Of a stretch of DNA of 64,000 nucleotides, positions 1 to 63,400 are shown in pieces (within the stretch, counting starts at the first letter, position 1; each line of letters opens with the position of its first letter). Location: positions 5,914,231 to 5,978,230 of the forward strand of contig NC_134033.1 in the NCBI RefSeq assembly GCF_964204645.1, read 5' to 3'. The translations under genes and the position numbers were made by a program. This stretch comes from Tubulanus polymorphus. Lineage: Eukaryota; Animalia; Nemertea. The notes under the pieces were generated by a model, which saw nothing but the letters and a program-made list of their open reading frames with translations, was not told where the DNA came from and ran no database searches.

Positions 1-3000
1 GGATAATCTGGTGAAGAGTCTGGTTAGCAAGGCCTCCGGTCACGTGGCTCGCCCTCTTATTGTGTATGTGATAGACGGAGTCAGGCGGATGTCACTACAG
101 GTAGGCGTCGATTATCAATCGAACCCAGTCACAGTCGTGGGGGTTGTGTTCATTGTAGAGTCGAATGAGTGAGAATTCATTCATATGTCGAATTTAACAG
201 AAACCCGTTGAAACGGCTGCTTGGTTTTAATCTATTTTCTTTGAAACAATGCATGCCTTCTAGTAGATAAATGGGTATCTATTGTAGATTATGATTTTAT
301 TCATACGAAAAATGAAAAAAAAATATAATAAGATCCCAATCACAAGAACGATGGGGAACGACAACGTAACGATAGGGAAGCAATTACATTACGCGCACTC
401 AACGTGATCGAACCGGGATCGCACGTTGCACCCAACCGATACACTGAAAGTCGATTCAGTTACAGCAACCATTCGGCAATAGTTATAGAGCTCGTCATAT
501 ATTCGTGCCAATTCAGTTTTAGCCAACGAATGTGGTACCAGATTCAGTGGCCAGACTAATCGAATTCACGATCGGTCACGTTCCCTGTAATAAAACTATA
601 CATATGCCGAATAATTTTAGGTCTGTCCTCTATTTTAGGACAGAGAAATGATAAAATGGCTGCTCGACGAGTCGGAAATCAAAGTAAAATTCGTCTTCTC
701 AAAGTGCGATATATCTCGTAAAAACGTAGAAATGGACACACCCGACGGCTATAACGTCGACGAAGAGCGTGGTAAGAAATTCGACTGTCTTAAGAACGAC
801 ATCGAACTCTTGTATAAACAAATGAAAGACGATTTGATGTATATACCGAACGAAGCTGGCGAGGGAGTCGGCGATGTGAAACTGGACGAATCGAGATGGT
901 GCAGTTGCGTGTCGGCCCTAAACTATAAACGAGCCAAGAGAAAGAAAGGACCTGGTGCTGCGATGGACGAATGGTTTATCCGTCAGTACGACCGCATGGT
1001 CAGGAATATAGTCACCATCTTGGTGGAGAATATTTCCGAGCAGATACTGTGCATATACGAGGACGCCATGTCTCCGTTGCATCGATGTTTGAATTTCGTT
1101 CGCAACGAAAATTCGATCTTGGCCGAGAATGAACGAGCGAACGTCGAATCGGAAAACGTCGAACAAAATGTCCGTCATAGAATATCGAAAAAATTCGCCA
1201 TTTTCGACGAGAACTGTTCGACTCTGTTGATTTTGCAAAGCGCGTTCACGACTCTGGTCCGAGTTTGGTCAGCGAAGTATATAACCTCTAGTTCAAACAC
1301 GTTGAAGTTGATTTTGTCGAAATTGAATCCTCAAATCGTCGAACTAACTAGAACATGGTTTCCGCACAATGAAAACTGCAACAAGGACAAACTAATACTG
1401 ATGTACCTGTCGATACTAGATACGCTGTTAGGCTACATCAAACGGGAAATGCAACGAATGCTACAGTACAATTTAGTATGTTTAGTTGTTGAAATATGTG
1501 AGGAAGGTGGACAGACTACGGCAGATGAATTTGCAGCTAGTTATGGGCTGTTACTGGCGACGTCGCCGCTACAGAAATTCCAACAGAAGTGCGTGGACAC
1601 AGTTTGGAAAACAACCGAGAAATACTTTCAAAAACTTGTGCGATCTGAACTAATGAAGAACATGTTGGAAAGGTAATTATGATTTTCTTTCTTAAATGAA
1701 CCATTTTGTTATCTGCTCAGAATGATGACAGGTTTCTATTTACCACGCTTGACTGGTCACCACTAGTTAAATGCATTGCCCAGACAATACTTACAAATTT
1801 TGGACTCATACATTGTCGGTCGTTTGCTGCATTGTTCAGAGATATTGATGGCCTAGGGTTGCTGGAGAGCTATCTTTATGGTAACTGTAGTTGGAGCCAT
1901 ACTTTTGGCCATATCAATGCAAAACCTTTGCCTCTCTTGAAAAGATCTCCCCTGTCAATTACAGTCGTTTTTTATCTGAATGAATATTTGAGCAGGGTTC
2001 ATTCGATAGCTAAGAATCTGGAACAAATGAAAGTGGCAATGCTTGAGGAACTAATTCATATATTTCCGAAACAAATCCTACCTGAGCTCGGTAAACAACT
2101 GTGCGACGCGTGTGCACTGGTGCTATCAGAAACTCACGACGAATTCAACGCATGTTTACAAAGGTATTTCTCGAATTCGTCATTGAGAATTCATTGTATT
2201 TGTTTTTATTTCATCATCTTTATTTCTAAATGAATTACAATTGAATATTACAAGTATAAATAAACTCGGAGAGTGTTACAATATCTATCATTGCATACAA
2301 AATATGATTCTAACACAACAGCAATGACACCTACGTAGAAAAGCCGAAGCTCGAATATTGAAGGCACATTCACAAAGCAAAAAAGAGACAATTCTAACCA
2401 GAAAAAAAGACTCAAAAATACAACTGACTTTCGTCGAGGAATCTATATATTTCAACGTTTAACTTTGATTTTAAGGCAGAGGTATTTGAGAAGCGCGTCG
2501 GTATGTGGACTATCAACGATATTCTTGGGACAAGTGAATGAAGACCATTTGGTTGAGATGGAGGTTTTTGCACAAGCTAGTATCAACTCGGTCATATTCG
2601 GCGATGTAACTGTACGTAACGGCGTCCTTTGTTTCAAAAATCACACGTATACTGGGATTGCATTTGATGTATGTCTATTCCAGTTAGGACCAGTGATCCA
2701 CGACGAGCCTCGCACCTACAATATCGAACGTGCCAATTCTAAGAACCCTAAATCAATAATGGCATTTGTACTTCAGAAAGATGACGTCACGAGGTAAACA
2801 AATATGATTTGCGAACCTTAATATAATATATAGAATTTGTATCAGTCGGGGCCCAATACAAGCCCGAATTCACCAAGAAACCAGTGGTTGTTCTACTTGG
2901 CCAGTATCCGCCAATGCTGTGAATCGATTCATAAACAACCCACGTGTTAGATCTAGTAGTTAGACGTCACTATAGTTGTGGGGTTCATCACGGGTCATTA

Positions 3001-4159
3001 CGGCAAAGCGTGTAGTTACCCTAAGTAACATTGGCTACTGCAATCAATAAATAATGTCAGCCCCTAGAAATTAAACTAACCGCCTATTGCAATCTTTGGG
3101 TCCCATTAGAGTGCTTATCAGTGTTTGTTGATTTTAGGGCGGCTCCCAGAATTAACTTCTCACTCGATTCCGCTGAGAAGAGCTCACTGCCCCTCACCCA
3201 AAACAAAATGGAAAACTTCATGGCACGTACTTCACCCCGGAAACGGAAATTGTCGAATTGGAGGCAGAGAGTTAAAAACCTTCAAAAAACCTGGTAATAT
3301 ATTACTGTATTCGCAAGTAATAAGTTATAGAAAAGCTGAAATTTTTTTTACCTAGAATGTTGTCATGCATTTTAGTAAGATCTGTCCAATAGAACATGGA
3401 AATGTGTTGAAGGTATATAACTTCGTGATGCCCAGTTATAGCGAATTGTGGATAGTGGTTGAGCGATGTCAGTGTAACCTTGCGACATACCTCTCAACTC
3501 ATCACCCGTCACTGCTCACTCGATATACTGTAGCGTTAGGAATTGCTGAGGGTTTTGGCGCCTTGGAGAAAGCGGGAAGTCAATTTCAGGGCTGTTCAGC
3601 TGCTGATATTTGGGTAAGTTCAATCAACCCTGCAAGTTTCAACCATCATGATTGATTAGTTTACACTTGTCAACCTTCCCGAATGGAAGCGTCAACTATT
3701 ATGATTGGTTGGTTCGCAATGTCTGTTAATTGGACGAATTAACGTGGACCATGTCATGTGATATTTAACTGCATTCTTATATTACATCCACAGATTAAAG
3801 AGATGTCGTCTAGTGGCGAGATTGAACACGAGGAACATATCAAAATCTGTCGTTTGGGTGAAAAGGAGAAACCAATCGGCAGGACGATGTCGGAATGTGA
3901 TATTTCATTTAAGAAATCCGGCCAGGGATTACAGCGCTCTAGCTCCACCAGGCGGAGAAGAATGAAACTAGACTATACATCGCAGTTGCTAGGCGACTGT
4001 TTTTGCGATCTCCTCGATATCATATTCCCATCAGCTGATTCTCGACTGCCAGCGCCATCTATACCAGCGCATATCGTAGCGATAGTGGGCTCTTTCAGAC
4101 AATATAAGATAACGTTAGAAGAAGCGTCGATGAAGATTAGAGAAATAAAAGACAAATAA
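1..4159 (+). CDS. 3' part of a multi-exon host gene: dynamin-like GTPase region plus C-terminal pseudokinase (DSTYK-like architecture). Inferred exons <1-100, 639-1672, 1732-2163, 2476-2793, 3138-3293, 3376-3613, 3794-4159
   Basis: Phase-consistent GT-AG introns join the ORFs. LIVYVIDG...FVFSKCD resembles dynamin-family GTPase strands and the G4 motif. HGNVLKVYNFV..LWIVVERCQCNL..ALGIAEG matches kinase subdomains IV-VIa, with HRD replaced by FQG and DFG by RLG. Confidence 0.6.
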
Positions 4160-8317: not shown

Positions 8318-10579
8318 TTAACCTGAATCGCGATGACGTAACAGAAGAGCCAGATTCAACCATGCTGGAGGACGTCGTTCCCTCCTACTTCGTTGCAGGC
8401 CAACTTCCTCGACTACTTCATTGTCCCCAAAATCGGTTTCTTCCTCACGACCTACTATAATTGCATTGTCTTCAATTACATCATCAGTACGATTTTCAAT
8501 GTCACTGTGCCATTTTCCAGATAATTGAACCCTTCGAATGCATGGGTCATCTTCCTGTAATTCCACAGATTCATGCTGTCCGATCTCAAGGTCAATCTCA
8601 TTGCTGCCTTCATCACCGGGATCTTCATCCACTCTGTTGGCTTTGTAAATAGCTGAGATAACGTCAGAGTTGTACAATCGAGATAAGGTGTCGGCATCGA
8701 TGTTCTTTGAGCCGCTGCGGTACTCAATTTCGAGACCATACGTAGAAATAGACTGTAACCATCTATGAGCGGTGGCATCCAACTTTGCAGTCTTCAAGAC
8801 ATACGTGAGAGGATTATTATCTGTCTTCACATGAACCTTGCTAACGTAAACATAATCATGAAATTTATCTAAGGCACATTTGAGGGCAAGAAATTTCAGC
8901 TTGTGTACCTCGTAATTCCGTTCTGCTTTATTCAAGGTTCGACTGGCGTACGCAATGACGTGTAACTTCTCGTCCCCTAGGCGTCGCTGATAAAGTACTG
9001 CACCTAGGCCTTGTCTCGAAGCGTCGGTGTGTAATTCGAATTCTCGAGAATAGTCGGCAAAGGCTAAGACTGGAGGAGTGACCAATGCTTCCTTCAGCAG
9101 TTCGAATGCCTTCTGACAGTCTTCTGTCCAGTTTACCGGCGAGTTCTTGTTTTCTTTGCCAGTACATCCAACCAAAAGTTCCGTAAGTGGTTTGGCAACC
9201 TGGGCGTAACCCCTGATGAACTTCCTATAATAGCTGGAAAAGCCAAGGAAACTCCGAACTTCAGCAATGGTCTCAATTTTGGAGGGATCCGGCTCAATCC
9301 CGGCAGCCGATACTTTATGGCCAAGATGGATCATACTTTCGAGTCCAAATGCGCACTTGGATGGCTTCAACTTAAGACCAGCGATGTACAAGCGTTCAAA
9401 CACCTCTTCAAGCTTGGTGATGTATTAATCGAAGTAAACGGCGTGTACGCTTATGTCGTCAATGTATACGCAGCTTCCTTTCAGGTTTAAATCTCCAAGA
9501 CACCGCTCCATAAGCCTTTGGAAGGTTGATGGCGAATTCGTGGGGCCGAAAGGCAGTACGTTGAACTCATAAAAGCCGAAACCTGGGCCTACATTAAATG
9601 CCGTCTTTTTGCGGTCCTGCTCTGCCACCTCTACTTGCCAGTAGCCACTCCCCAAGTCGAGGCTGGCAAAGTAACGGGCACCTGCCATGCTGTCAATGAG
9701 TTCATCAATACGTGGAAGCGGAAATTGGTCACGAATAGTTCGAGCATTCAGGGTCCTGTAGTCTATGCAGAAACGGTTTTCTCCATTCTTTTTCCTGACG
9801 AGTACAATCGGAGATGCAAATGGTGAATGAGAATGCCGAATTATCATCCCGGGCGGAACTCGACGATACCGTTCTCTGAAAGGAGTACTGTCGGACATCC
9901 CATGCCGCAAGACATTGGTCCTACCCATATGCAGGTCACCGATCGCAAAAACCTTTCTCCATTTGACGAGGACCTCCTTCTGAATCTTCAATTCATCGCT
10001 GGTGAGCCCAGTTGACTTCTCAAATGCGAACAAATTCAAGAAATCATCGTCTGATATATCTGGGGAGTTGTGATCCAGACAAGTGTTATTGCACACAGGA
10101 TGAACAGATGTGCCATTCTGCAAGGAACATAAAACAGCCTTCGATGGAATGGTCACTGAGCGAGTATCTATATTTCTGATGATAACACTCCCTGCTGGAC
10201 TGAGTCAAACTTAAATTACTTACCGAAGGTACCAATAAAAGATTACCGGGAATATTACTTCCTTCATCACACGTAATAATTTGCTATCCTGTGTCTGTTC
10301 TCTTACATCTTCGAATGCCATGGATGACCATCTGCGAATTTGGCGGAATAACTACTGCTTTGGTACACCGAACGATATCCAATTGCTGGTTATCAGCTGA
10401 AAAATTCCTAGTGCACTGCCAAATCGACGGTAAATTTCAAGATCTCGTATCTCCAGAAGAACATTCATACCGAGCAAAACTGGAACTCTCTGGTGATATG
10501 GGGTATCCAGTACTACAAGGCAGAAGATAGAAACGCTGGCATCTACTATTCCAAGGCTCAGCTCAATGCATCCAATATA
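8318..10579 (-). pseudogene. pol: Gypsy pol: end of protease, reverse transcriptase and RNase H; integrase core deleted
   Basis: SPFASPIVLVRKK..RFCIDYR, LDLGSGYWQV, YIDD, LHTDASRQGLGAVL, TDNNPL, DADTLSR. The sequence then jumps to the RSRRERRPP tail. Frameshifted. Confidence 0.93.
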
Positions 10580-10937
10580 AGTAATAGGGATAATAGGCTT
10601 TCATACCAAAGGTCGAAGGGTCGAGCTCGTAAAAATGAAAATAATAATAATTTACAGTTGAATTAGTCGCGCACACTCCTAATTCAACTATAAATTATTA
10701 TTATTTTCATTTTTTACTCACTCGCCCCTTCAACCTTTGATACGAAAGCCTATTATCCCTATTACTCTTAAAATATTCATATATATGAATAACATTTAAA
10801 TCATTGAACTTCTAAAATCAATTTTAATAAAAAATATAGTATTAAAATGGAAGCAAATAAATACTACTGCCCAACATGTAATATCGATATAGACAAGTCT
10901 CAAAAAAAGCAAGACACAATAAAACTATAACACATTT
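10580..10937 (+). repeat. Left TIR; the first 187 bp form an imperfect palindrome
   Basis: Reverse complement of 28620-28975 apart from 2 substitutions and a 2-nt A-run indel. Confidence 0.95.
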
Positions 10938-13292: not shown

Positions 13293-13961
13293 ATGGAACC
13301 AGAACAACCACAAACTATCAATATTACAAATAACACTAGCGTTATAAACATATACTACAAGAAGTGTTCTAAATGTGAATTAGATAAATTAGCTATAACA
13401 GAATTTAGTAAGCGTAAGATTAGCAAAGATGGTTTTCAAAATTGTTGTAAAACTTGTGCTAAACTATACACAAAACAATATCGAGAAGATAATATAAAAC
13501 ATCATAATTATTATATGACAAAATATATGAGAGAAAGATATCAAACAGATCTTAATTTTAGATTGAAACAATGCTTAAGGACTAGAATAACACAATTATT
13601 CAACAAAGAAACACATTCAGAAACACTATCTAATTTGTTGGGTTGTTCAGATGAATTTCTCAAATCATGGATAATATTTCAATTCGATGATAAAATGAAT
13701 ATAGATAATTATGGGGATTATTACCACATTGATCACGTGTTACCAATATCTAAATTTAACATGAATGATGAATACAATAAAAAACTTATTTGGGGTTGGA
13801 AAAATTTAAGGCCTTCAGAAAAGAAAGAAAATCAAACCAAATCTAATAAACTAGATTTACAGTTATATTTGGAACAGTTAACAAAAGCAAAGAAATTTAT
13901 TGAATTATGGAACAATAATCCAAATAATGAACAATATGTTGAGTCTTTAATGAGTGGTTAA
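13293..13961 (+). CDS. HNH-type endonuclease with N-terminal Cys zinc-binding region
   Basis: KKCSKC...CCKTC, then YHIDHVLP...WKNLRP...EN.TKSNK, the pattern seen in phage and giant-virus HNH nucleases. Confidence 0.75.
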   Translation: MEPEQPQTINITNNTSVINIYYKKCSKCELDKLAITEFSKRKISKDGFQNCCKTCAKLYTKQYREDNIKHHNYYMTKYMRERYQTDLNFRLKQCLRTRITQLFNKETHSETLSNLLGCSDEFLKSWIIFQFDDKMNIDNYGDYYHIDHVLPISKFNMNDEYNKKLIWGWKNLRPSEKKENQTKSNKLDLQLYLEQLTKAKKFIELWNNNPNNEQYVESLMSG

Positions 13962-15126: not shown

Positions 15127-16215
15127 ATGATGAAAAAAGAACAATATTTAAGAGATTTATATTACAACCCAGAAAGTGAAGTATCATATTCAAGTGTTTC
15201 AGAATTATGGAATAAAATTAAATCTGATAAAGAAAAAATAAAATATAGTGAATTAAAATCATGGTTACAAAATCAACCCACATATCAAATTCATAAAAAG
15301 ATGGATAAAAAATATTTAACAAGAAAAGTAATGGTTTCATATATTGACCAACAATAGCAAGCTGATTTAATTGACATGAAAAACTTAGAAGAATATAACA
15401 AAGGATATTTTTGGATACTAAATGTTATAGATATATTCAGTAGATACGCATGGTCAATTCCAATCAAAAATAAAACTGGTATAGAAGTTACAAATTCTTT
15501 CAAATTAATATTTAAAGAAGCTATTCCAGATAAAATACAATTTGATGAAGGTAAAGAATTTTATAACAAACATTTTAAAAAACTATTATCTGATAACGAA
15601 GTAGAATATTTTTCAACACATTCAGATAAAAAAGCATCTGTTATAGAAAGATTTAATAAAACATTGAAAACTAGAATGTGGAAATATTTCACCGCTAATG
15701 AAACATATAAATATATCGATGTGTTAGATGATTTAGTGAAAGGTTATAATAATTCTAAACATAGTTCTATAAATATGAAACCCATACAAGCTAGAAAAGA
15801 AGATAATTCGGAAATAGTTTGGAATAATTTATATGGAGCATTTGTTACACATGATTTTGGAGAACCTAAATTTAAAATAGGACAACATGTTAGAATTTCT
15901 AAATATCGAAAAACATTTTATAAAGGTTATACCTCTAATTTTACTGAAGAAATATTCAAGATTAAAAAGATAATATTAACTAAACCTTTTGTTTATAAAT
16001 TAGAAGATTTAAAAGATGAAGAAATATTAGGTTATTTTTATGAACAAGAATTATCATTAGTACCAAATCCAGATGAAATAGAATACAAAATAGAAAAGGT
16101 ATTGAAAACAAAAACTCTTAAAGGAAAAAAGTATTCTTTGGTGAAATATGAAGGATATGATGATAAATTTAATGAATGGATTTTATCTAGTAAAATTAAA
16201 AGAATAAATGAATAA
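15127..16215 (+). pseudogene. int: Retroviral-type (rve) DDE integrase with C-terminal chromodomain; premature TAG at 15355-15357
   Basis: DQQ*QADLIDM (W codon to TAG), VIDIFSRYAW, QFDEGKEF, KASVIERFNKTLK, YKIEKVLK...LVKYEGYDDKFNEWI. Confidence 0.93.
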
Positions 16216-16826
16216 AGATTTATTTATATTTGAACCACATAATATGTTAGTTACTGGAGTTACAAATTGTGGTAAAACACACTTCATATTAGATTTGTTA
16301 GAAACTATTTATAAAAATCATTTTGATAATATAATATTATTCTGTCCTACATATGAAATGAATAAAACATATAATAGAGATATAGTTAAGATAAAAAAGT
16401 TTATTATATTAGACCCTAAAACAGTAAAAGAAAATTTAGATAATTGTATAAAAATTACATTAGATATTTATAAAGGATCTAATAAATTATTTATTATTGA
16501 TGATTGCGCAAATTTACATGATTCTAAAATTAGAGAAAGTGAATTATGTTATTTAGCTCTCTCTGGTAGACATTTTGGGATAACAACTTAAATCAGAAAA
16601 TTTAAATCAGAAATATAATTCAATTGTGAAAGATTTTAGAGAGAATATAAGATTTCTAGTTTTATTCTACAACAAAGATAGAACATCTATGCAACAATCA
16701 TTGGAAGAAAATCAAATTATACCTACTGAATTACATGATGAATATATGAATAAATTAAAAAATAATAAAGGTTCAAAATTATTACTGAGATTACAATTTC
16801 CTTATGAATATAAATTTATAAAATAA
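16208..16826 (+). pseudogene. A32/FtsK-like genome-packaging ATPase, disrupted at ~16589
   Basis: Walker A GVTNCGKT, Walker B FIIDD, GRH motif; the frame resumes NQKYNSIVKDFREN after a short duplication. Confidence 0.9.
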
Positions 16827-17962: not shown

Positions 17963-19210
17963 TTAATACATAACACTATCTAATTGTGAATTTATAATAT
18001 TTAATTGTGCGTCAGATATAATATAAATGTGCATTTTAAAATTTTTGATTCCCTTTTTCTTTGTCATGAATAATTGTATCCCATCTTTTGTATTTTGTAA
18101 TTTTTTCCCAGAACCATGTAATAAGTTATCTTCAGTTGTTCTAAAATCTAACCATAATGCAAATTTATTACCGGTATAATAATCAATTTGATTAATGTTA
18201 CAATTTTCAAATGATTTTACTTTTTCATTCATAAAATGTTTTTTAATTTCTACCCATTGATCTATCATTCTCATTCCTTGACAAAATATTTTATTCGCTA
18301 TACCTTCGATAGTTATTTCTACTTTTGTTATTTCAGGATTATAATAATTATCAACATTTATTGCGCCATTAGTATACGTTCCAATAGTAAAAAATATTAA
18401 TATACCTTTAATAGATCTTCTAGGAAAGTTAATATTCTCATTTATTATTTCATCATTTGCATTAATAGTTACAGTTTTAAATTTATCAATATAATCATAT
18501 AATAATGAAAACCCTTGATTGTATTGAGTTTGAATTGTTCTAGCAATATTTTCATCAGTTACTGTATCATATTCTAAACATATATTCGATAATTTATAAC
18601 TCATATCTTTATTAACGCTAGATATTACAATTTCATTTACAGGAGCAAATGTTATCTCAAATATAATATCTTCTTGAATTGTGTATTTATATAAAGGTGC
18701 ATTATTATTTATCAATTCAAAGTCTAATGGAATTTTATATTTGCTTCCATATATACTTTTTATCAATTTATCTACATCATTAGTTAATATTGCGCTATTA
18801 GCTTCGGATCTTAATTTATTTTGGTTTTCTGATTGGATTCCTTGAAATATCATATTATTTCTGTTTTCTTTAGTTAACCATAAATCTTTATAATGCATAA
18901 ATAAATTATAATCATCTAATGAGAAAACTGTTTCTGGACCAATCTTTATTGTTAACTTTTTAATCAAATATCTTCCAACATTATCAACGACATAATTATT
19001 AGTATTACCGATTACTTTTATATCAGCTGATAAATAAATACTATTTGGAACATAAAAAGTATTTTGCGTTAATCGAGGGATTCTAACGTATAAAGTTTCA
19101 TCGGGATTAATATTTGAAGGGTTATGAGTAATTATATGATGTGATCTTTCTGCTTTAATAGCATTAGATATTCTATGATTCTTAGAAGGATTGATATAAC
19201 TCCCACTCAT
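17963..19210 (-). CDS. Major capsid protein (double jelly-roll), intact
   Basis: 415 aa, beta-strand-rich. RIPRL..VPNSIYLSADI..VVDNVGRYLIKKL and FALWLDFR..LHGSG motifs resemble Polinton major capsid proteins. Confidence 0.8.
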   Translation of the reverse strand: MSGSYINPSKNHRISNAIKAERSHHIITHNPSNINPDETLYVRIPRLTQNTFYVPNSIYLSADIKVIGNTNNYVVDNVGRYLIKKLTIKIGPETVFSLDDYNLFMHYKDLWLTKENRNNMIFQGIQSENQNKLRSEANSAILTNDVDKLIKSIYGSKYKIPLDFELINNNAPLYKYTIQEDIIFEITFAPVNEIVISSVNKDMSYKLSNICLEYDTVTDENIARTIQTQYNQGFSLLYDYIDKFKTVTINANDEIINENINFPRRSIKGILIFFTIGTYTNGAINVDNYYNPEITKVEITIEGIANKIFCQGMRMIDQWVEIKKHFMNEKVKSFENCNINQIDYYTGNKFALWLDFRTTEDNLLHGSGKKLQNTKDGIQLFMTKKKGIKNFKMHIYIISDAQLNIINSQLDSVMY

Positions 19211-24304: not shown

Positions 24305-24646
24305 TTATTCGAAATCTATTTCATGGTGCCCTTTTTCATTCTTACCTTTGTATACGAAATAGAAATCTCCAGAACATAATTCTTCTAGATCTTCACTTGA
24401 TAATCTATGAAATCTATCTGGTAAATAAGTTCTGAATTTATATTTATTTCCTTTTAATCCTTCATATTCTAAATGAATTACTAATTTATCTCCATATTTG
24501 TTAGTAACTGTAACAATATTTGTAATTAAATATTTCTTGTGAATTGTTAATTCTGTTAACTTTTTGAATTTATAATCTACAGATTTTATATTTGTGGTAT
24601 CTTTAATTCTATCTAAGAATTCACTGTGTACTTGTTTACTCTCCAT
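24305..24646 (-). CDS. Small beta-rich protein, possible OB-fold ssDNA-binding protein
   Basis: KLTEL...KYLIT....TNKYGDKLVIHL...YLPDRF; adjacent to pPolB. The fold is a guess. Confidence 0.5.
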   Translation of the reverse strand: MESKQVHSEFLDRIKDTTNIKSVDYKFKKLTELTIHKKYLITNIVTVTNKYGDKLVIHLEYEGLKGNKYKFRTYLPDRFHRLSSEDLEELCSGDFYFVYKGKNEKGHHEIDFE

Positions 24647-24674: not shown

Positions 24675-27600
24675 TTAACAGTTTAGAATCCTTTTCATAA
24701 TCTCATTTTCTTTTGTTTCTTCTCTTTTGAATTTTATATATTCATCTAAATTGCAACCATAGGCGACTGTGTGGATTCCATCATCTAAAATATATCTTTT
24801 ATCATCAAATGGGTTTAGACTTATCTTCTCTATCTCTTCAATATACATTTCATGATCTTCAGATCTTAAACATTTCATTTTATGTTTTCTAACTTCTTCA
24901 TTAAATATACAATTGATGTAATCTTTGAAATGAATATTCTTTTCAACAACGCTTTTGGTAATTCCTTTTAACTTTTTAGCTTCATGTTCTTTAGTTTTAT
25001 ATGAATACATTTTAGATCTAATACCAATGAACTCTATCATTTCTTCACCACCTAATTCATCTTTGAATTTACCGGGAACTTTTTTATTATCATTGCTAAA
25101 CAATTCATGATTTTTTGGATAGTTACTGAAATCAAAATGATGATTTAATATTTTTAAATCATCTTTTATATTATCACTTTTTATCTTTAATATGTAAGAA
25201 TCTGTATCTAAATATAATATTTCTATATTTTTTTCTCCAAAATGGGGTTGTAATATGTTATAGTAAAATTGATACATTAATAATTTTGAAATTTCTAGAA
25301 CCGATGCACCAACATAAATTGGTTTATTAAATTTCATACTTGTTCTTCTCATTTTAACTGCTGCTAAATTTTCATCAAATATTCTGTTACCTATGAATTT
25401 CGGATACGATTGTAAATGTCTAATTCTTTTACCATTACTAACTAACTCAATATCACTTCTATTTCTTATGTTTTCACATGTTTTTCCATAGAACGCATTA
25501 TTCATTAGTTTAAAGTAATCCTTCTCAAAATCAGTTTTAGCTTCAGTTCTCTGTTTGGTGTTAAAATCTATATATTTTTCTAACCATTTAGATTGATTGA
25601 ATGAAATATATCTATGTACTTTTTTTAATATCATTCCTTGATTCAAATAAAACTTCAACATTCTATAATGTACTACATAATTATATTAATCTTCTTGAGT
25701 TACCATTAACTTTTCAGTATGAATATGATTATCGGGTTTAATTCTTTTTTGATAATTTGATAATTCTTCATGTTTAACAGTTTTATGTTCGGGACAATAT
25801 GCTAGATTTCTAGATTTAAATTTAATATTTTCAGGGTATTCTAAATCTACAACAAAGAAGTAACCAATATCTGAATCATCTGCAATATCTAGGATTCTTT
25901 TCTTCCAATCAAATTTATCAATTTGTAAAACTTCAGTTATTTCAAACATCCCATAAGGTTGTGGTTCCATCATTGCCCAACCATAAAGATTATTTGCATC
26001 TATGTATAATAATTTATATCCAGGATTATCATTTACATTGAAATATCTATCACCCAATACACCTGAAACACCTCCTCTTATAGATTTTTCAAATAATAGT
26101 AATTGATCTATATTTGTTAACAAATCCATTTTTATATCTGTAAATTTTAATCCACAATCCCATGTTAATCCTGGTGATGAATAACAATGACAAGGATCAA
26201 TGTTAAAATATTTTAGGTTTACATCTCTAAACCTTTCGAATATATCGGTTAATAATAATACATCTGATTTTAAATATAAATCTACTAATTGTCCATGATT
26301 TTTAATTTCAAAATGATTCCAAATATTCAATGTTCTATTATAGACTTCATCTTTAACATATTCATTTTTTAATTCATCATAGAATTGTTCTTTCAATAAT
26401 TCAGTTATTTTAAAATCATTATGATTTTTATAGAAAGAATATGGAATCGCTCCTTTATATCTCATTAATTTAAAATCATCATAATTTGGGTAATATTCTT
26501 TTAATATCTTTAATTCATCATCAACTAATGATTTAGATAAATTATCTAATGAACTATTTAAAAATCTATATGAATCTATAAATCTTAGACACCCAAATTG
26601 GAATGATATATAATTCTCAGATGTTTTAGCTAACATTCTAAATTTATAAGTTGGTATTTTATCTTTTGATCTATTTGAATTTAAAATTTTTTTATTTCAT
26701 TATTAATTTCTTCTATTTTATGACATAGTTGCTTAATGAATAAATGCGCGTCATACCCCGATAGATTATGAAATATAACTGGTACAAAATTAATTTTCTT
26801 AGCTTGTAAATTACAATTCTCATATGCTACACCTCTAAATTTACCATTCAAATGATCATGGTCTCTTACTTTTTTATCTTTATAATTAAATATCTTTTCA
26901 CAATAATAACATTTATCTGTAAACTCAAATACTTCTTTATCTTCTGTCATAATTATTTCTTTATTTGTATTCAATAATTTACTAAATCTTATTTCATATT
27001 CAATTAATAAGTCACAAAAATGATTGATAACATTTTCATTTCTATAATGATAATATTCACTTTCAATTAGTTCTGGATAATCAGATTTAATATATAACCC
27101 GAAAGCAGCAGCTGATTGATGAATCTTTTTAATAGTATTTGTTATTGGTGGTTCTTCTGAATAATCACTTTCATTAGAATTTAATTTCTTTCTTTTATAA
27201 TATATATCTTTTCTATCTTTATCTGTTAATTCTTTATTTAATGATTCAAAAAAATCTCCATATATTACAAATGGTACTTTATTTTTGTAATCATATTTTT
27301 TGAATTCTAATATTTTATCCTTTTCATTTGGTAAAACTAATTTACAGTAATCATGATTATCACATAGTTGTTTATGATTTAATAATATACTTTCATTACT
27401 AAATTTATGTAAACATTTTCTACATAGATATATTTTATTATGGTGATCACTTTCTGTTCTAAAAAATAAATCTATTTGTTTAATCCACATATAATGATTC
27501 TCATAATATAGTATATCTATAACATCATTTGAATCATAATCTTTTGATAGGTATAAAGGTTCTAATGTATAATGTTTAATATTATTTCCTTTTGTATTTG

Positions 27601-28708
27601 GTAATTTAATTAAATCAAATACATATATCTTTAAATTATTATCTCTTTCTATTTTGGGGATGTTTTTAATTCTAACAGGATACTTATCTATCTTATAATT
27701 ATTTTCAAATGGTTTATAATGAGTTAATCTAAAACTATGTGTAATATCTTCTGTTGGATGTAAACAACTTATTATAGCCCATAGAAAACATTTATCATCT
27801 TCATTTTGTATATTTATTACAGCATTAGTTTTAAATGGTAGTTTAATATAACTTGATGCTTCAATATATGGTTCTTTATAATATGATAAATTATTTTCAT
27901 CAATTGGTTTTGATTTAGTTAACTTATTATATTTTGTGTTATAAACATGTAAAGTTATAAATATTATCTCATCAAATATTAAACCAGATCCTTCAAAATA
28001 TTTCTCTTCTATTTTAGTTTTTATTTCATTATAACATTTATTTAATTTATCATCTATATGTTGTTTAGATATAATATGTTGTGAATGAGAATTTTTATTA
28101 TATATTGGTTTATCTTCAGATTTTATAAACTTTACTTTAACTGATATACTAATTTTAGGATATTCAACATCCGTAATTATTTTTATTATTTCTTTCATAT
28201 TTTCTAAATGTTTTTTATTTTCTTCTATTGTTTTTCCTTTATGAAATTTAAACTCGATAGCTTCTGGACCAATATCACTTTTAAATGCTTCGGTTATCTC
28301 TATATCTTTTTTATTATCTAATGAATTAATATAATTTCTTACATCTTCCATGTATGGTCTTTTATTGTTTAATTTATTTTTTATTCTTTTAATTGTCTTC
28401 TGTTTCTTATCGTTATCATTATCAAAATAATCTTCACCTAAATTATCATTATTCTTATTTCTAATATGACTTATAGATTTTAAATGTTCTTTATAATATC
28501 TTTTATCACTGAATGATTGATTACATGTATCACATTTATATGTTTCTTTTTCATTCTTTAATTCTTCTAATTTAGTTTCTAATATATCATCCTTATATTC
28601 TAGTTTCAATTTATTCTCTAAATGTGTTATAGTTTTATTGTGTCTTGCTTTTTGAGACTTGTCTATATCGATATTACATGTTGGGCAGTAGTATTTATTT
28701 GCTTCCAT
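24675..28708 (-). pseudogene. polB: Protein-primed family B DNA polymerase with N-terminal zinc fingers, OTU-like Cys/His motifs and an EndoVII/HNH-like insert; one frameshift (~26690) and one in-frame TAA (25686-25688)
   Basis: FHNLSGYD (ExoII), YLKSDV (ExoIII), YIDANNLYGWAM, KLMNNAFYGK, YLDTDS, VRDHDHLNGKFRG, NEDDKCFLWAI...ENHYMWI. Adding one A at ~26690 and reading through the TAA gives one continuous frame. Confidence 0.95.
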
Positions 28709-28975
28709 TTTAATACTATATTTTTTATTAAAATTGATTTTAGAAGTTCAATGATTTAAATGTTATTCATTTATGTGAATATTTTAAGAGTAATAGGGAT
28801 AATAGGCTTTCGTATCAAAGGTTGAAGGGGCGAGTGAGTAAAAAATGAAAATAATAATAATTTATAGTTGAATTAGGAGTGTGCGCGACTAATTCAACTG
28901 TAAATTATTATTATTTTCATTTTTACGAGCTCGACCCTTCGACCTTTGGTATGAAAGCCTATTATCCCTATTACT
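28620..28975 (-). repeat. Right TIR; contains the pPolB start and the terminal palindrome 28789-28975
   Basis: Reverse complement of 10580-10937. Confidence 0.95.
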
Positions 28976-30283
28976 AATATAAGGAAGAATCTCTCCAGTT
29001 GCAGACTTCACTTCTATTAGATCCGAAACAGGAGTTATATCCCGAGTACGTCCAAAAATCCATAACTGACAGTAGACACCATTGAACCAGTATCTAGCAA
29101 CATCTTACAGGAAATCCCATCAACTGTGACTGACGCTTCATTGGGACGACCAACCAATCTATCAACGACAACATCATCATCCCTTGTCCTATGGTTGCCA
29201 TGATTTCTCACCTTAGTTAATTTTACATGTCTGTTAACTTTCCTACTGTTATTACGTATATATTTATTCCTTCGGCCTATTTCCTGACTGCACCCTGTGG
29301 GCGGCCGTTGTCCCGAGGGTGGATGGCATTTAAATCTGACGAATTTTCAGTGGTTCCATGCGTTCTGTAGGGCTGTTGACACTTTCGCCAACCATGGCCT
29401 TCTCTACTACAGTTTTAACAAATCCACTGCGTAGTTCTGTTCTCGTTGGGTGACGATCTGTTCATGATCTTAGGATCCCAACGCTTCGACTTTGCACCAG
29501 TTTTAAGCCGCTCTAGCCGTGACTGAATACTTGTCATCCTGGTGTCAGTAGCTTTAAATCGATCCTCGATTCGGTCCAGTTTCTTATCGATTGAAGGCAA
29601 AGTTGGTCCAGAAGAAGTTGAGGGTCCCGAGTTGACGGACACCTCCACGGCCGATGCTTAAGCTTTGGTAGAGATAGCCGTCACTGAGCGGGATAACTCC
29701 TGCTCAACTTTCCTGGCTTCGGTTACTAAACTTCTGAAATTCACATCGTATGTGTTTACAAACGCCCTCTAATCGTCATCTTCAGTTGCATATTCTGCAG
29801 TCCAGCCCAGAACTGGGGCTTCAACATCGCTTCGGAAATGTCCTTGAATGCCTTGGATCACAATTCCTCTAACCGACAACTCCATTGTGCGACGGATTCC
29901 AATGGTTCTTGAGCACTGCAATAAAACTTCGAAAACACCTGCGATGGTGTAAGTACGTCGCCATAAATCGTTTCAAATTTTTGAAGTATATCCTTTAGAG
30001 TAGCCTCCTCTCCTAAGTTCAGAACCACTTCCGCAGCTGTACCTCGAAGAGACCTCCAGACGGCTTGAATAACCGTAGGGGTCTTGATAGATGCATCTTC
30101 CATTAAGGCTTTCAGCTCGAACCTCCATTGCTTAAAAGATACTTCACCTTTATCACCCTCTATACCAGAAAAAGTACCCAAGCGAGGTGTATGGAGCACG
30201 ACGCAGTTTCTAGAACCTACATGGCTGACCTTAGGTTTTGTATCCTTATTACCCTCATCCATTTCGGAGCAAGAATGGAACAC
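28976..30283 (-). pseudogene. gag: Gypsy gag (PNMA-like, CCHC knuckle) and N-terminal half of the aspartic protease
   Basis: FSG...SFKQWRFE..RSLRGTA; C*NCSREGHGWRKC; LLDTGSMVS. Confidence 0.85.
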
Positions 30284-52298: not shown

Positions 52299-53535
52299 CA
52301 CAGGGACTTGTCACGACTGATAATGGATGAGACCAATGATGGGGGTACCAGTATCCCTGCAACTGTATAATAAAATAACAAGGGTGGCAACAAATTTTCA
52401 ATCTGACAATGACCTCTCCACTTCAATCGACTGTAATTCCAAAAATTCTCAACCGATTCACATGAAATAAGCTTTAATACAACCTAGAAGACTTTCTGCT
52501 TCGAACGAGCCTACAACCACCACTCTCCGACAATTATCTCACAACGAAATCACCTTTTTTTGACGAGAGATAGCTCAAAATGGAGGTGTACCGATTCTAT
52601 GGTGGACAGCAAAATGGTCGTTTTTTTCAATTCAAACGATGATTTCTATGTGAGATCTTAGAGAAAACCCCAACAAACCATACATTTTTTAAAACTACGC
52701 GGTCATACCTGTACGCTTATCTCATTTATTTGTATAATCCACGCGATGGGTGAGCTCACAAGCTCAAAATCGAAAATGAGGACAAACACGGCGTTCAACT
52801 TGTCATCAACTGGGCGGCCATTAATCACGTGATATCGTAGTAACGGGCTAAATATTTCACGCGCATTGATTGGCTTAGAGATTTCGAAAAACATTACAAA
52901 ATTTATTAAAAGTTCTGTTAATTAATAAAATATCCGTATTATGAAAATATAGTGCAATATTCGTCTGAGGGGTGGTAATATTAGCAAATATTTCCTTTTT
53001 TCAAGTCTACAGAAGTAGACTTGTGCGATCGTGCGAGGTGACTTTTTCGTATATTTGTTCGATTTTGAGCTTGCGAGCTCACCCATCGCGTGGATTATAC
53101 AAATAAATGAGATAAGCGTACAGGTATGACCGCGTAGTTTTAAAAAATGTATGGTTTGTTGGGGTTATCTCTAAGATTTCACATAGAAATCATCGTTTGA
53201 AGTGAAAAATACGACCATTTTGCTGTCCACCATAGAATCGGTACACCTCCAATTTGAGCTATCTCTCGTCAAAAAACGGTGATTTCGTTGTGAGATAATT
53301 GTCCTAGGTGGTGGTTAAAGGCTCGTTGGAAGCAGAAAGTCTTCTAGGTTGTATTAAAGCTTATTTCATGTGAATCGGTTGAGAATTTTTGGAATTACAG
53401 TCGATTGAAGTGGAGAAGTCATTGTCAGATTGAAAATTTGTTGCCACCCTTGTTTTTTATGTTATACAGGGATAGTGGACCTGGTCATTGATATTGGTTT
53501 TATTCATTCACTATCAATTGTGACAAGTCCCTGTG
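52299..53535. mobile_element. Non-autonomous foldback DNA transposon with ~476-bp TIRs and 8-bp TSD GACGAGCT
   Basis: CACAGGGACTTGTCAC...GTGACAAGTCCCTGTG; TSD at 52291-52298 and 53536-53543. Confidence 0.9.
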
Positions 53536-60400: not shown

Positions 60401-63400
60401 ACTATGCATCATTCTTATGACTACCGCATGATTCGATGTTCACTACGTCATCAATATCGGCGTTTAAAATATGTAAAATACAGTTCTGCATTTTGGCGTT
60501 TATTTTATTATCATTTTTTAATGCTATGACTTATTTTCTAATGCAATGAATTAAGTAGATATTTTCCTCATTTTGGATTTTGAACGGATTTTGGGGTTAG
60601 CCTGGTTTATATTGGTTGCCAGTCAATCCAATTCAAACTAAATCGTCGATATATTCAAATTCAAAATAACTTTTTTGTTCCATTAATATTATATTCTATA
60701 AGCGTTCGTTACCTCAAGTGCATTATAGCATTAAATAGTTCCAGCAAAGACTAATCACAACGGATAGGTATTTGAAATTAATCTGCCAATATTGGTTTTA
60801 TTGAAGTACGACATACTGACAAACCGATATACCGACATACCCGTGGCAGGGGGCTTGGATCGAGGGGCTGTGTGTTTGCGTACATTACCCTATTATAAAG
60901 TGGCTGGGATCGTGTGGCTGGATTTTTGCGTGGATTATCCCCGGCTGGATCGAGGGACTATGAGTATATCGGTCAGTCGGTTTGTCGGTATGTCGGGAGG
61001 AAAACTCAAGCCGAATTGCTCCTTTTATATAATGTTACTTTTAGCGGGGCACTATTCAACACTATACTGGACTTGAAACAGTTCGTATTAGTTTTGAGTT
61101 ATATCTGTTCAAAATTTTCTACTGTGCATCGCCCTTTTGAAGACTCAAAACTTCCTCTCATTCTATCGTTGACTTAGGTAAAACTCAGCCTGTATACCGG
61201 TGGCCACCAGGTCGCATTTCTAGAATTCGATGGTACCGGATCCGATACGATTAACTGGTTTTCGAAAAGTCGATTGCTCTCATCAACATGGACGGATCTA
61301 CGATTCGATTCGCCAACAAACTATTTTTCAATAGTAGGACAGTAAGTTGCCACGTTGTGGTAGGAGGGAATTTACGTAATATTCTTTTCTTATAGTTTGT
61401 AACCACAATGTATATCTTGTGTGCCCTTTTTGCTCATGTGTTTTTTTCTTGCATGAAACGCCTCTTTAGTGACTTGTATAGATTGAAATGTATTTTGTCT
61501 CAATGCTCTCAGTTAAAATGAGCCCCTCTTTGAAAAGTGATAAGATTAATTTAAATGAAGCCACCACATTTCGGCGATTGATGCCTATCAACCGTCATCA
61601 GATGGAGTAACCAAAAACAGAAAACTCAGAGAGTCAGAAACTGAGAAAAAAATGGGTAATGCAACAAGGGGTACCTTAAAAACCTCAAGTGGAACCTCGT
61701 TTAAACTCGAATACAACTTTTTATCGGAGAAGTAAGCAAGAAGAAGCCCCAAGTAAGAAAATTTAATTAATTTCATTTCTGGTTATAACGAACTAATCGG
61801 TTAACGAACATATTTTCTGGTCCCGTTCATTGTTACGAGGTTCCGCTGTAGAGGATATGGATTACACAGTGACAGGTTCAGGAATTAACCGAATATAAAT
61901 AAAGATTTTGTCCAGACATCAATTGATAATGTGCAGAAAACGGAGTATTCGTTAAATTTCGAAAATTCATAAATAAGAGCTGACTCCATATTGTATCTAG
62001 TGGTAAATATCTTAACAGGATAAGTTAGTTACGAATTCTGAAAATGCAATAGGTGATTGGATAAAAAACGTAATTAGCAACCACACTTTCGGGCTTTTGG
62101 TTGCAAATGTATATAAAATAGGATAAAAACCCACTATGTACAATTAAAAGAATTTAAAATCGAGAATTTATTCATAGAATGTAAAAAAGACGACGTTTCG
62201 ATCTCACACTAGATATCATCGTCACGGTGATCTCTAGTGTGAGATCGAAACGTCGTGTTTTTACATTTTAGAAATGAATTCTCGAATTGGATTTTAAATT
62301 CTTTTAATTGTACATAGTGGGTTTTTATCATGTGATTCGTTCACCACGTTTGAGTGAGGTTATCGTACTTATATATTCAATAATTGGCCCAAGTCCGATA
62401 TACGACATTATAGTGCAACGTGTAGAGATACTTTTGGAGTAAATCGGGGAATTAATGCGCAAGCTGAAATATAAAAGCGTAGTAATATGGAACTAAAAGA
62501 AGTTCCATGAAAATAGATCCTTGATTGGGGATCCATATTCTACAGCTGATGACAGGCGACACCTTACATACTAGGGTGATGGCTCTAAATGACGGTTGAC
62601 AGATGACACCCAACACACCAGTTAGGTGACGACTCCACAGGACGGTTGACAGATGACACCCTACACACCAGTTAGGTGACGACTCCACAGGAAGGTTGAC
62701 AGATGACACCCTACACACCAGTTAGGTGACGACTCCACAGGACGGTAGACAGATGACACCCTACACACCAGTTAGGTGACGACTCCACAGGACGGTAGAC
62801 AGATGACACCCTACACACCATTTTGGTGACGACTCCACAGGAAGGTTGACAGGTGGACACCCTACACACCAGTTAGGTGACGACTCCACAGGACGTTTGA
62901 CATGTGACACTCACACATCCTCCCTATGATAACCCAAGATGAACGACTTTTCTGGTTGCATTAGAAGAGAAAGAAATATCATTAAAAAGTAAACGTCGTT
63001 GCCATCTGCAATTCGATCAAATTGAAACCCCACCGATACGATTACGAGCGCACCGTCATACCACAAGACCAACGAGGCCGCTGACAACCAAGTGAATGTT
63101 TTAACTATCTACAGTACCTCACCTTACCCTAATCCTATCCCTAGGGGTAAAACGGAACCCTCTGGACCCTCTTCTCACCCTTTTGACACTAACCCTATCG
63201 AAACCCTAGCCCTAGACCCAATATAATGATTTTATTGTTACTTTTATTAGTTAATACTATATATATATATATATATAAGAATACTTATGATTCTTACACA
63301 CTGCATATATGATAAACAATATCAGCAAAAGGCAGATGAAATAAAAGCCACACTGCAGTCATGGTTGACAGGTTGCCAGCTCGTCTCGTCGTGGACTCTA

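Follow-up and report, generated by a model that had tools for sequence, protein, structure and literature searches.

A Polinton of the nemertean Tubulanus polymorphus with long palindromes flush with both ends

Architecture of the element and its ends

The terminal structure of an 18.4 kb Polinton was evaluated in 64,000 nt of Tubulanus polymorphus DNA (NC_134033.1, positions 5,914,231 to 5,978,230), hereafter the window, and all positions are window coordinates. Each end of the element was a 187 nt imperfect palindrome with arms of 87 and 88 nt, 8 mismatches, one 1 nt bulge and a 12 nt loop. At the left end, folding and arm alignment delimited the outer arm (10580–10666, + strand) and the inner arm (10679–10766, +), which was an inverted second copy of the tip; the loop between them (10667–10678, +) was defined by alignment and the read table. 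At the right end, the inner arm (28789–28876), the loop (28877–28888) and the outer arm (28889–28975) were placed on the + strand, which is the 3′-terminal strand there and finishes in ACT. The sequence at 28789–28975 was the exact reverse complement of 10580–10766, with 0 differences. Sequence comparison located a 6 bp target-site duplication (TSD), AATATA, directly outside both ends (10574–10579 and 28976–28981). The full terminal inverted repeats (TIRs) measured 358 bp (10580–10937, +) and 356 bp (28620–28975, −), were 98.9% identical between the ends and took in the start codon of the polymerase gene. The palindrome formed the outer half of each TIR, flush with the element end, and the remaining 171 bp of the left TIR included a copy of the start of the polymerase gene.

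The 187 nt unit folded into a single unbranched hairpin of −63.8 kcal/mol, whereas shuffled sequences reached −11.8 ± 2.7 kcal/mol (n = 200, z = −19.6) and 0 of 200 were as stable. The palindrome had been described in a first-pass annotation of this DNA, and its arms, mismatches, bulge and loop at both ends, together with its position flush with the Polinton end, were confirmed by alignment and folding. The same annotation had set the 3′-terminal ACT against the inner AGT, and this geometry was as described: the T that closes the 3′ strand (28975) lies opposite A28789, which leaves 28788 as the next base of the template. No further copy of the 187 bp unit was found elsewhere in the window. The tip resembles the I-SceI site, a likeness judged to be due to chance.

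The gene content was consistent with the ends. A protein-primed family B polymerase (pPolB) was encoded at 24675–28708 (−) in three open reading frames (ORFs; 26681–28708, 25686–26636 and 24675–25661; DNA_pol_B_2, E 1e-11). A retroviral-type integrase with a chromodomain occupied 15127–16215 (+), where it was split into two ORFs (rve, E 1e-7; Chromo, E 2e-4), and an A32-type packaging ATPase, probably also in two ORFs in this copy, lay at 16208–16826 (+; Pox_A32, E 1e-7 for 16208–16591). The likely major capsid protein (17963–19210, −; 415 aa, 771 relatives) was assigned by size and a weak Capsid_N match (E 0.009), and a profile search returned no PDB sequence match for it. An endonuclease VII/HNH-like ORF was located at 13293–13961 (+; phrog_1035, E 3e-14), and similar ORFs followed pPolB in two related loci (L006 and L008). 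No adenovirus-like maturation protease was matched among the ORFs scanned, which did not include all short or broken frames. No HUH Rep or Holliday-junction resolvase was identified in domain scans of the element ORFs. Tap and Tpg had no match in the element, which carries a pPolB with a fused terminal-protein domain instead. Polintons/Mavericks have TIRs of 100–1500 bp, TSDs of 5–8 bp and lengths of 13–25 kb (10.1101/2023.08.22.554363). With its pPolB, rve integrase, packaging ATPase, capsid protein (weak Pfam match), 358/356 bp TIRs, 6 bp TSD and 18.4 kb length, the element is a Polinton; the gene set, TIRs and TSD support the label that the first-pass annotation had given it. It was nested in a long terminal repeat (LTR) retrotransposon (7284–32110), between a gag-like ORF (29858–30262) and a reverse transcriptase/RNase H region (8318–9928), and is therefore the younger insertion. 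The repeats of this host retrotransposon were 89–95% alike, and the setting points to an animal host.

Conservation of the palindrome in relatives and family reads

A total of 98 fetched loci were compared with the element. Four were close, with polymerases 71% identical (L005, L006, L007 and L008), and the other 94 were at 22–41%. At L008, whose polymerase was a single 1363 aa ORF as against three in the window copy, a 257 nt flush palindrome with AGT...ACT ends was bordered by GC-richer DNA outside. It folded at −69.4 kcal/mol versus −23.3 ± 3.1 kcal/mol for 40 shuffles; the sequence compared covers one end of this element. Its arms matched each other at 76 of 84 columns and the arms of the window element at 60 of 82 and 58 of 85 columns (about 70%). 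L007 carried an inner arm ending in ACT and a 16 bp stem cut by the contig start, which the seed scan had missed and which was read from the sequence. L005 and L006 held too little upstream DNA to show an end. A lone second copy of the terminal 17-mer was also observed at L008 (948–964), just upstream of the polymerase gene; this motif of the tip may also act as a promoter or as a site bound by protein.

In the 94 distant loci, 15 candidate hairpins were detected in 11 loci. Fourteen of them were examined, leaving aside L050, which nearly duplicates L049, and one of two hairpins in L052, and none could be assigned to the end of an element; this negative is not evidence of absence, because the ends of the distant loci are undefined. 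Among 27 further viral loci, three had TIR pairs, and none of the three had a palindrome of at least 30 bp at these repeats, whose true tips were not established. Scans of viral contigs with the capsid protein, a capsid alignment, the integrase and a 19 nt tip pattern gave no match. Hence, the palindrome is conserved among close relatives, in full at L008 and up to the contig start at L007, and the flush form looks lineage-specific. Separately, a 262 nt fold-back unit with AGTAG...CTACT ends and 76 bp arms was observed about 3 kb from a decayed Polinton polymerase (L042 15646–15907; L041 13962–14223). No 6 bp TSD was seen around it, and it could not be tied to an element end.

Sibling copies were studied via read tables, chiefly from one run (X5) of raw reads from a separate study, of which about 12% was read. 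The statements below refer to the listed portion of these tables, namely 40 of 162 letter rows, 15 of 43 joints, 12 of 75 replaced-letter (loop) rows and the 6 largest of 182 loose ends. The depth in X5 was 4–7 in the flank and 1,200–3,500 in the palindrome, which points to an estimated several hundred ends if the flank is near single copy; the whole unit was covered at a depth above 1,100. At exactly 10580, 1783 reads stopped matching, and their flanks were unlike one another (agreement 0.33). The palindrome was also present in contigs of three other runs. None of the RNA read sets was listed as carrying the element. The palindrome is thus a family trait. The first-pass annotation had named sibling copies or relatives without the palindrome as the observation that would overturn it; both the reads and the relatives carried it.

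Solo 187 bp units had also been proposed. The depth was 2961 at the tip, 2833 at the inner junction (10760–10769) and 2768 just inside it (10770–10779). The depths at tip and inner junction were about equal; an inner arm is therefore likely to be present in most ends, and solo units do not make up a large group. No pile of loose ends at 10766 occurred among the six largest (the smallest had 351 reads, the tip 1783). The depth was thus continuous across the inner ACT, which argues against common solo units, and rare ones are possible. Excision at the inner ends, another earlier suggestion, was not borne out: these ends point the opposite way, and cutting there would free an interior without ends.

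Two other features were seen in these reads. Reads diverged from the TIR mainly at two positions, 10801 (634 reads) and 10937 (840 reads), against 1647 at the tips, and those at 10937 continued into the polymerase gene; many family members likely carry a shorter TIR made of the palindrome and about 35 bp. At 10599, 351 reads joined from a different tip sequence, and therefore a second tip subfamily exists.

Strand bias, arm covariation, loop orientation and the terminal protein

The mismatches of the stem were examined on each strand. On the 3′-terminal strand, all eight were G-T (5) or G-A (3). A tandem G-A was located in the stem (28836–28837 against 28927–28928), and the first two and last two bases of the right loop can pair as another on the + strand, at the loop base. 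Tandem G-A pairs are stable in DNA. The 3′-terminal strand folded better than its complement (−75.2 versus −63.8 kcal/mol). Of seven family variants without a partner in the other arm, five leaned toward the 3′-terminal strand, one was A-A and one leaned the opposite way. At L008, the 3′-terminal strand held a C-GAA-G triloop, and no G-T fell on the other strand among 8 confidently placed mismatches. GNA loops with sheared G-A mark the 3′ overhangs of Streptomyces and resemble parvovirus 3′ ends, according to passages of PMC4513846. The bias of mismatches and loop motifs is suggestive only.

The two arms varied together. Inside the palindrome, 31 variant rows were listed: 18 formed nine two-sided compensated pairs (for example 10590/10756, 10645/10700 and 10657/10688), 5 re-formed a pair disrupted in the window copy, 7 were the unmatched variants described above and 1 lay in the loop. 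For 10 of the 12 variant positions in the outer arm, the partner was also listed, whereas chance gave 2.2 with a maximum of 7 in 20,000 draws. Mis-mapping between the arms is unlikely to be the cause, because the four loop-proximal pairs are less than a read length away from the loop, which fixes their orientation. The stem length also differed. In a shorter-stem form, the joints 10635>10701 and 10635>10704 (53 and 141 reads) shortened both arms and kept the loop motif. A form with a longer stem, again changed in both arms together, is suggested by loose ends at 10671 and 10674, which are partner positions. The best-supported clean deletion was a symmetric loss of the centre (10626>10719, 34 reads). 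Its breakpoint coincides with the bubble of three mismatched bases in the stem, in line with the formation of a hairpin or cruciform in the host genome.

The loop orientation was explored in the replaced-letter rows, of which 10 of the 12 listed bore the loop. All ten (104 reads) showed TC-C...CTC in the orientation of the window copy. A flop would alter 8 loop letters; one was listed (10672, 25%), and the other seven were not among the 40 letter rows, where the lowest palindrome share was 16%. No strand-change joint 10580/10767 occurred among the 15 joints listed (smallest 9 reads). Hence, the flip and flop orientations anticipated by analogy with poxviruses and adeno-associated virus (AAV) were not seen, with 104 of 104 listed loop-bearing reads in one orientation, and equal flip and flop is unlikely.

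The first polymerase ORF was modelled with a mean predicted local distance difference test score of 72 and a predicted template-modelling score (pTM) of 0.37. Based on the predicted structure and alignment, a terminal-protein domain was placed at residues 136–256 (27941–28303, −). Its topology was strand-strand-helix-strand-strand-helix-strand, with a Gly-Ser-Gly loop after the second helix, where the linking residue sits in the terminal-protein fold (PMC11161782 section 6). The predicted linking residue, Ser241, was conserved in 55 of 56 rows, and the downstream vOTU residues Cys307 and His405 in 56 of 56, the three closest relatives included. The top viral matches were adintovirus-type proteins, and the top PDB matches were little-finger domains of Y-family polymerases, a fold related to these terminal proteins in passages of PMC11161782. 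The lineage keeps a terminal-protein domain, and replication likely still starts by protein priming. The proposal that the hairpins act in place of protein priming is therefore disfavoured, as the fold, the predicted serine and the vOTU Cys/His are all kept.

Candidate roles of the palindrome

The palindrome is real and conserved, and it is likely functional; it was not shown to be poxvirus- or parvovirus-like, and it is not a mini-element. To our knowledge, the replication of a Polinton has never been shown, and the racket model is a proposal. This model (Kapitonov and Jurka 2006) uses short terminal tandem repeats and TIR-to-TIR pairing, as outlined in part of PMC4196379. The survival of the ends through excision and their readiness for integration are described as unclear (PMC11161782 section 6). 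The present data need arm-to-arm copying, an unturned loop and two ends that stay alike, and for this reason protein priming was combined with a 3′ end that would fold back on the inner arm, so that the tip is shielded and re-templated. This combination is put forward tentatively, as somewhat short of probable. A single-stranded 3′ end would arise from an excised strand, a displaced strand or a trimmed end. The 3′-terminal strand would fold back on the inner arm and shield the tip, and the polymerase would extend a shortened outer arm on the inner arm, leaving the arms alike and the loop unturned. Copying by protein priming would follow, with the orientation of the end fixed and the two TIRs remaining identical.

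A process of this kind is known from Streptomyces, where Tap repairs truncated protein-primed telomeres by fold-back, as reported in parts of PMC5449611. The same source, in its account as of 2017, reports such repair as absent for whole-genome protein-primed replicons of the adenovirus and phi29 types. Streptomyces telomeres share with the element ends that are (here probably) protein-primed, a 3′ palindrome roughly 180 nt long and G-A/GNA motifs on the 3′ strand (sections of PMC5449611 and PMC4513846). A fold-back template that restores the tip would be a further likeness, which we infer for the Polinton. The Polinton is not a member of that system, which has several short palindromes, repair of at most 4 nt, an internal origin and Tap/Tpg, and lacks a family B polymerase and integration. 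By analogy, the fold-back of the Polinton might work as telomere repair does in Streptomyces, but over a longer stretch, a view held as tentatively as the mechanism to which it belongs.

Several points weigh against fold-back combined with protein priming. The folding of a single-stranded end is deduced from the sequence. TIR-to-TIR pairing was far more stable than two hairpins (−404.6 versus −139 kcal/mol), and the hairpins must therefore win by speed or form on overhangs. We know of no signal that stops extension at the tip; the same fold could therefore run into the interior, giving hairpin priming, and both can coexist. Generic template switching also makes arms alike, as described in passages of PMC8604942. 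The read tables give letters per position, and neither linkage within a molecule nor the direction of copying. The placement of all eight mismatches on one side (p about 0.008 if they are independent) was noticed after the fact, the two strands of L008 folded equally (−69.4 and −69.5 kcal/mol), and two of its eight placed mismatches were G-A on the other strand. One contig row, 10635>10700, terminated with the six final letters of the loop in reversed form and could represent either a flop or a product of deletion in the longer-stem form; a minority of flop is compatible with the rows listed. Moreover, the structural matches were weak (E 0.003–0.03 in the PDB, with a pTM of 0.37).

An alternative is that the folded 3′ end primes second-strand synthesis and copies the interior, giving a hairpin-closed duplex that is later opened with the loop orientation kept; the terminal protein would be retained for a later step or for a second mode. 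The first-pass annotation had raised such priming. Inward priming is geometrically possible, with T28975 on A28789, and the better fold of the 3′-terminal strand fits it. Hairpin ends of a single orientation exist in autonomous parvoviruses, and the endonuclease VII-like gene, found beside pPolB in relatives as well, could in principle nick, although HNH-type genes are common passengers in such elements and no Rep or resolvase was identified. The same scheme was proposed as model D for virophages as well as for polinton-like viruses (PLVs) (bioRxiv 10.64898/2026.07.28.741278 section 7), but this preprint ties palindromes mainly to elements without pPolB. Resolution of the AAV or poxvirus type predicts both loop orientations, against the one found among the rows listed, and the terminal-protein serine and vOTU residues are conserved. 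Hairpin priming was thus considered doubtful. A hybrid end was judged unlikely: the excised strand might snap back at its 3′ palindrome and prime its own second strand, and the terminal protein might then patch the 187 nt end in a fixed orientation before integration. If true, this end would join hairpin and protein priming in one replicon and mark a route from protein-primed Polintons to hairpin-ended genomes.

The palindrome could also be an old inverted duplication of the tip without a folding function, carried by protein-primed copying and serving at most as a second protein-binding site near the polymerase promoter, with the arms kept alike by template switching, which homogenises imperfect inverted repeats without selection (parts of PMC8604942). 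The lone 17-mer just before pPolB at L008, the lack of palindromes at the repeats of the three distant viral loci with TIR pairs (of 27) and the symmetric loss of the centre in integrated copies agree with this explanation. However, despite a polymerase divergence of 29% the palindrome is still found flush with the tip, as it is in most ends of the family, and one strand is favoured by the loop motifs and by the bias of the mismatches. Furthermore, template switching inverts spacers, the more so with long arms (parts of PMC8604942), and none was inverted among the rows listed; a neutral duplication was therefore held to be rather doubtful. It is very improbable that the 187 bp unit is a mini-element, resembling a miniature inverted-repeat transposable element, with the Polinton as a composite bounded by two units. 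The AGT...ACT ends of each unit and the 262 nt fold-back of L041/L042 are in its favour, but the unit alone has no flanking duplication and no other copy in the window, the depth was continuous over 10766/10767 without a listed pile there, and the L041/L042 unit shows no 6 bp TSD and is tied to no end. Palindromes are a known class of artefact. An artefact of assembly or of fold-back reads was nevertheless ruled out, as was a rearrangement unique to this copy, since the 9 differences between the arms are the same at the two ends and the reads of another study, the contigs of three runs and the relatives agree.

Comparison with known systems and further observations

The element resembles other Polintons/Mavericks in its length of about 18 kb, 6 bp TSD, TIRs of several hundred bp, AG...CT ends, pPolB with terminal-protein/vOTU regions, rve integrase, A32 ATPase and likely capsid protein. 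It differs in that the outer 187 bp of each TIR is a flush palindrome and in the maturation protease, which was not found among the ORFs scanned. The main text of a nematode Polinton preprint mentions no hairpin or palindrome (10.1101/2023.08.22.554363), and two further preprints touch on them only briefly. Long flush palindromes in pPolB Polintons were not found in the literature searched, which lay outside Repbase and most subscription papers.

In Halocafeteria virophages (subtypes 1, 2, 5 and 6) and a PLV (subtype 4), TSD-adjacent palindromes inside the TIRs have been described and hairpin priming proposed, in sections of bioRxiv 10.64898/2026.07.28.741278. The position within the TIRs next to the TSD and the rve integrase are shared with the present element. 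Those palindromes measure 52 nt (subtype 5) and occur mainly without pPolB according to the main text, whereas palindromes of 150–260 nt are combined here with pPolB and a terminal-protein motif. Arm covariation and loop-orientation data are given here for the window Polinton family. Terminal palindromes, seen in 2026 mostly in virophages and PLVs without pPolB, are thus extended to a pPolB Polinton.

Long imperfect terminal hairpins with mismatches are likewise found in poxviruses and in AAV and other parvoviruses. AAV ends occur as two inverted isomers, and Rep is needed. Poxvirus telomeres occur as flip and flop isomers (passages of PMC8956199). Two isomers and a resolvase or Rep thus characterise those ends, whereas the Polinton has one orientation in the rows listed and a terminal-protein domain. 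Casposons are also self-synthesizing, and some casposon TIRs hold palindromes (part of PMC4046053); these elements are prokaryotic, use a Cas1 integrase and have the palindromes in an internal position. Because this lineage combines long palindromes flush with the tips, arms that match, a loop of fixed orientation and a retained terminal protein, it yields sharp and cheap predictions on how often each loop orientation occurs, in which direction the arms are copied and what the chemistry of the free ends is.

Two ORFs, of 113 aa and 309 aa, carry no functional label. The former, which is 113–121 aa long across the loci, was observed after the polymerase in the window (24305–24646, −) and between the hairpin and the polymerase in L007 (338–688) and L008 (571–936). 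Two further long fold-back elements were located in the window at 52299–53535 (arms of about 430 bp) and 62122–62329 (arms of 40–80 bp), and both are probably non-autonomous DNA transposons.
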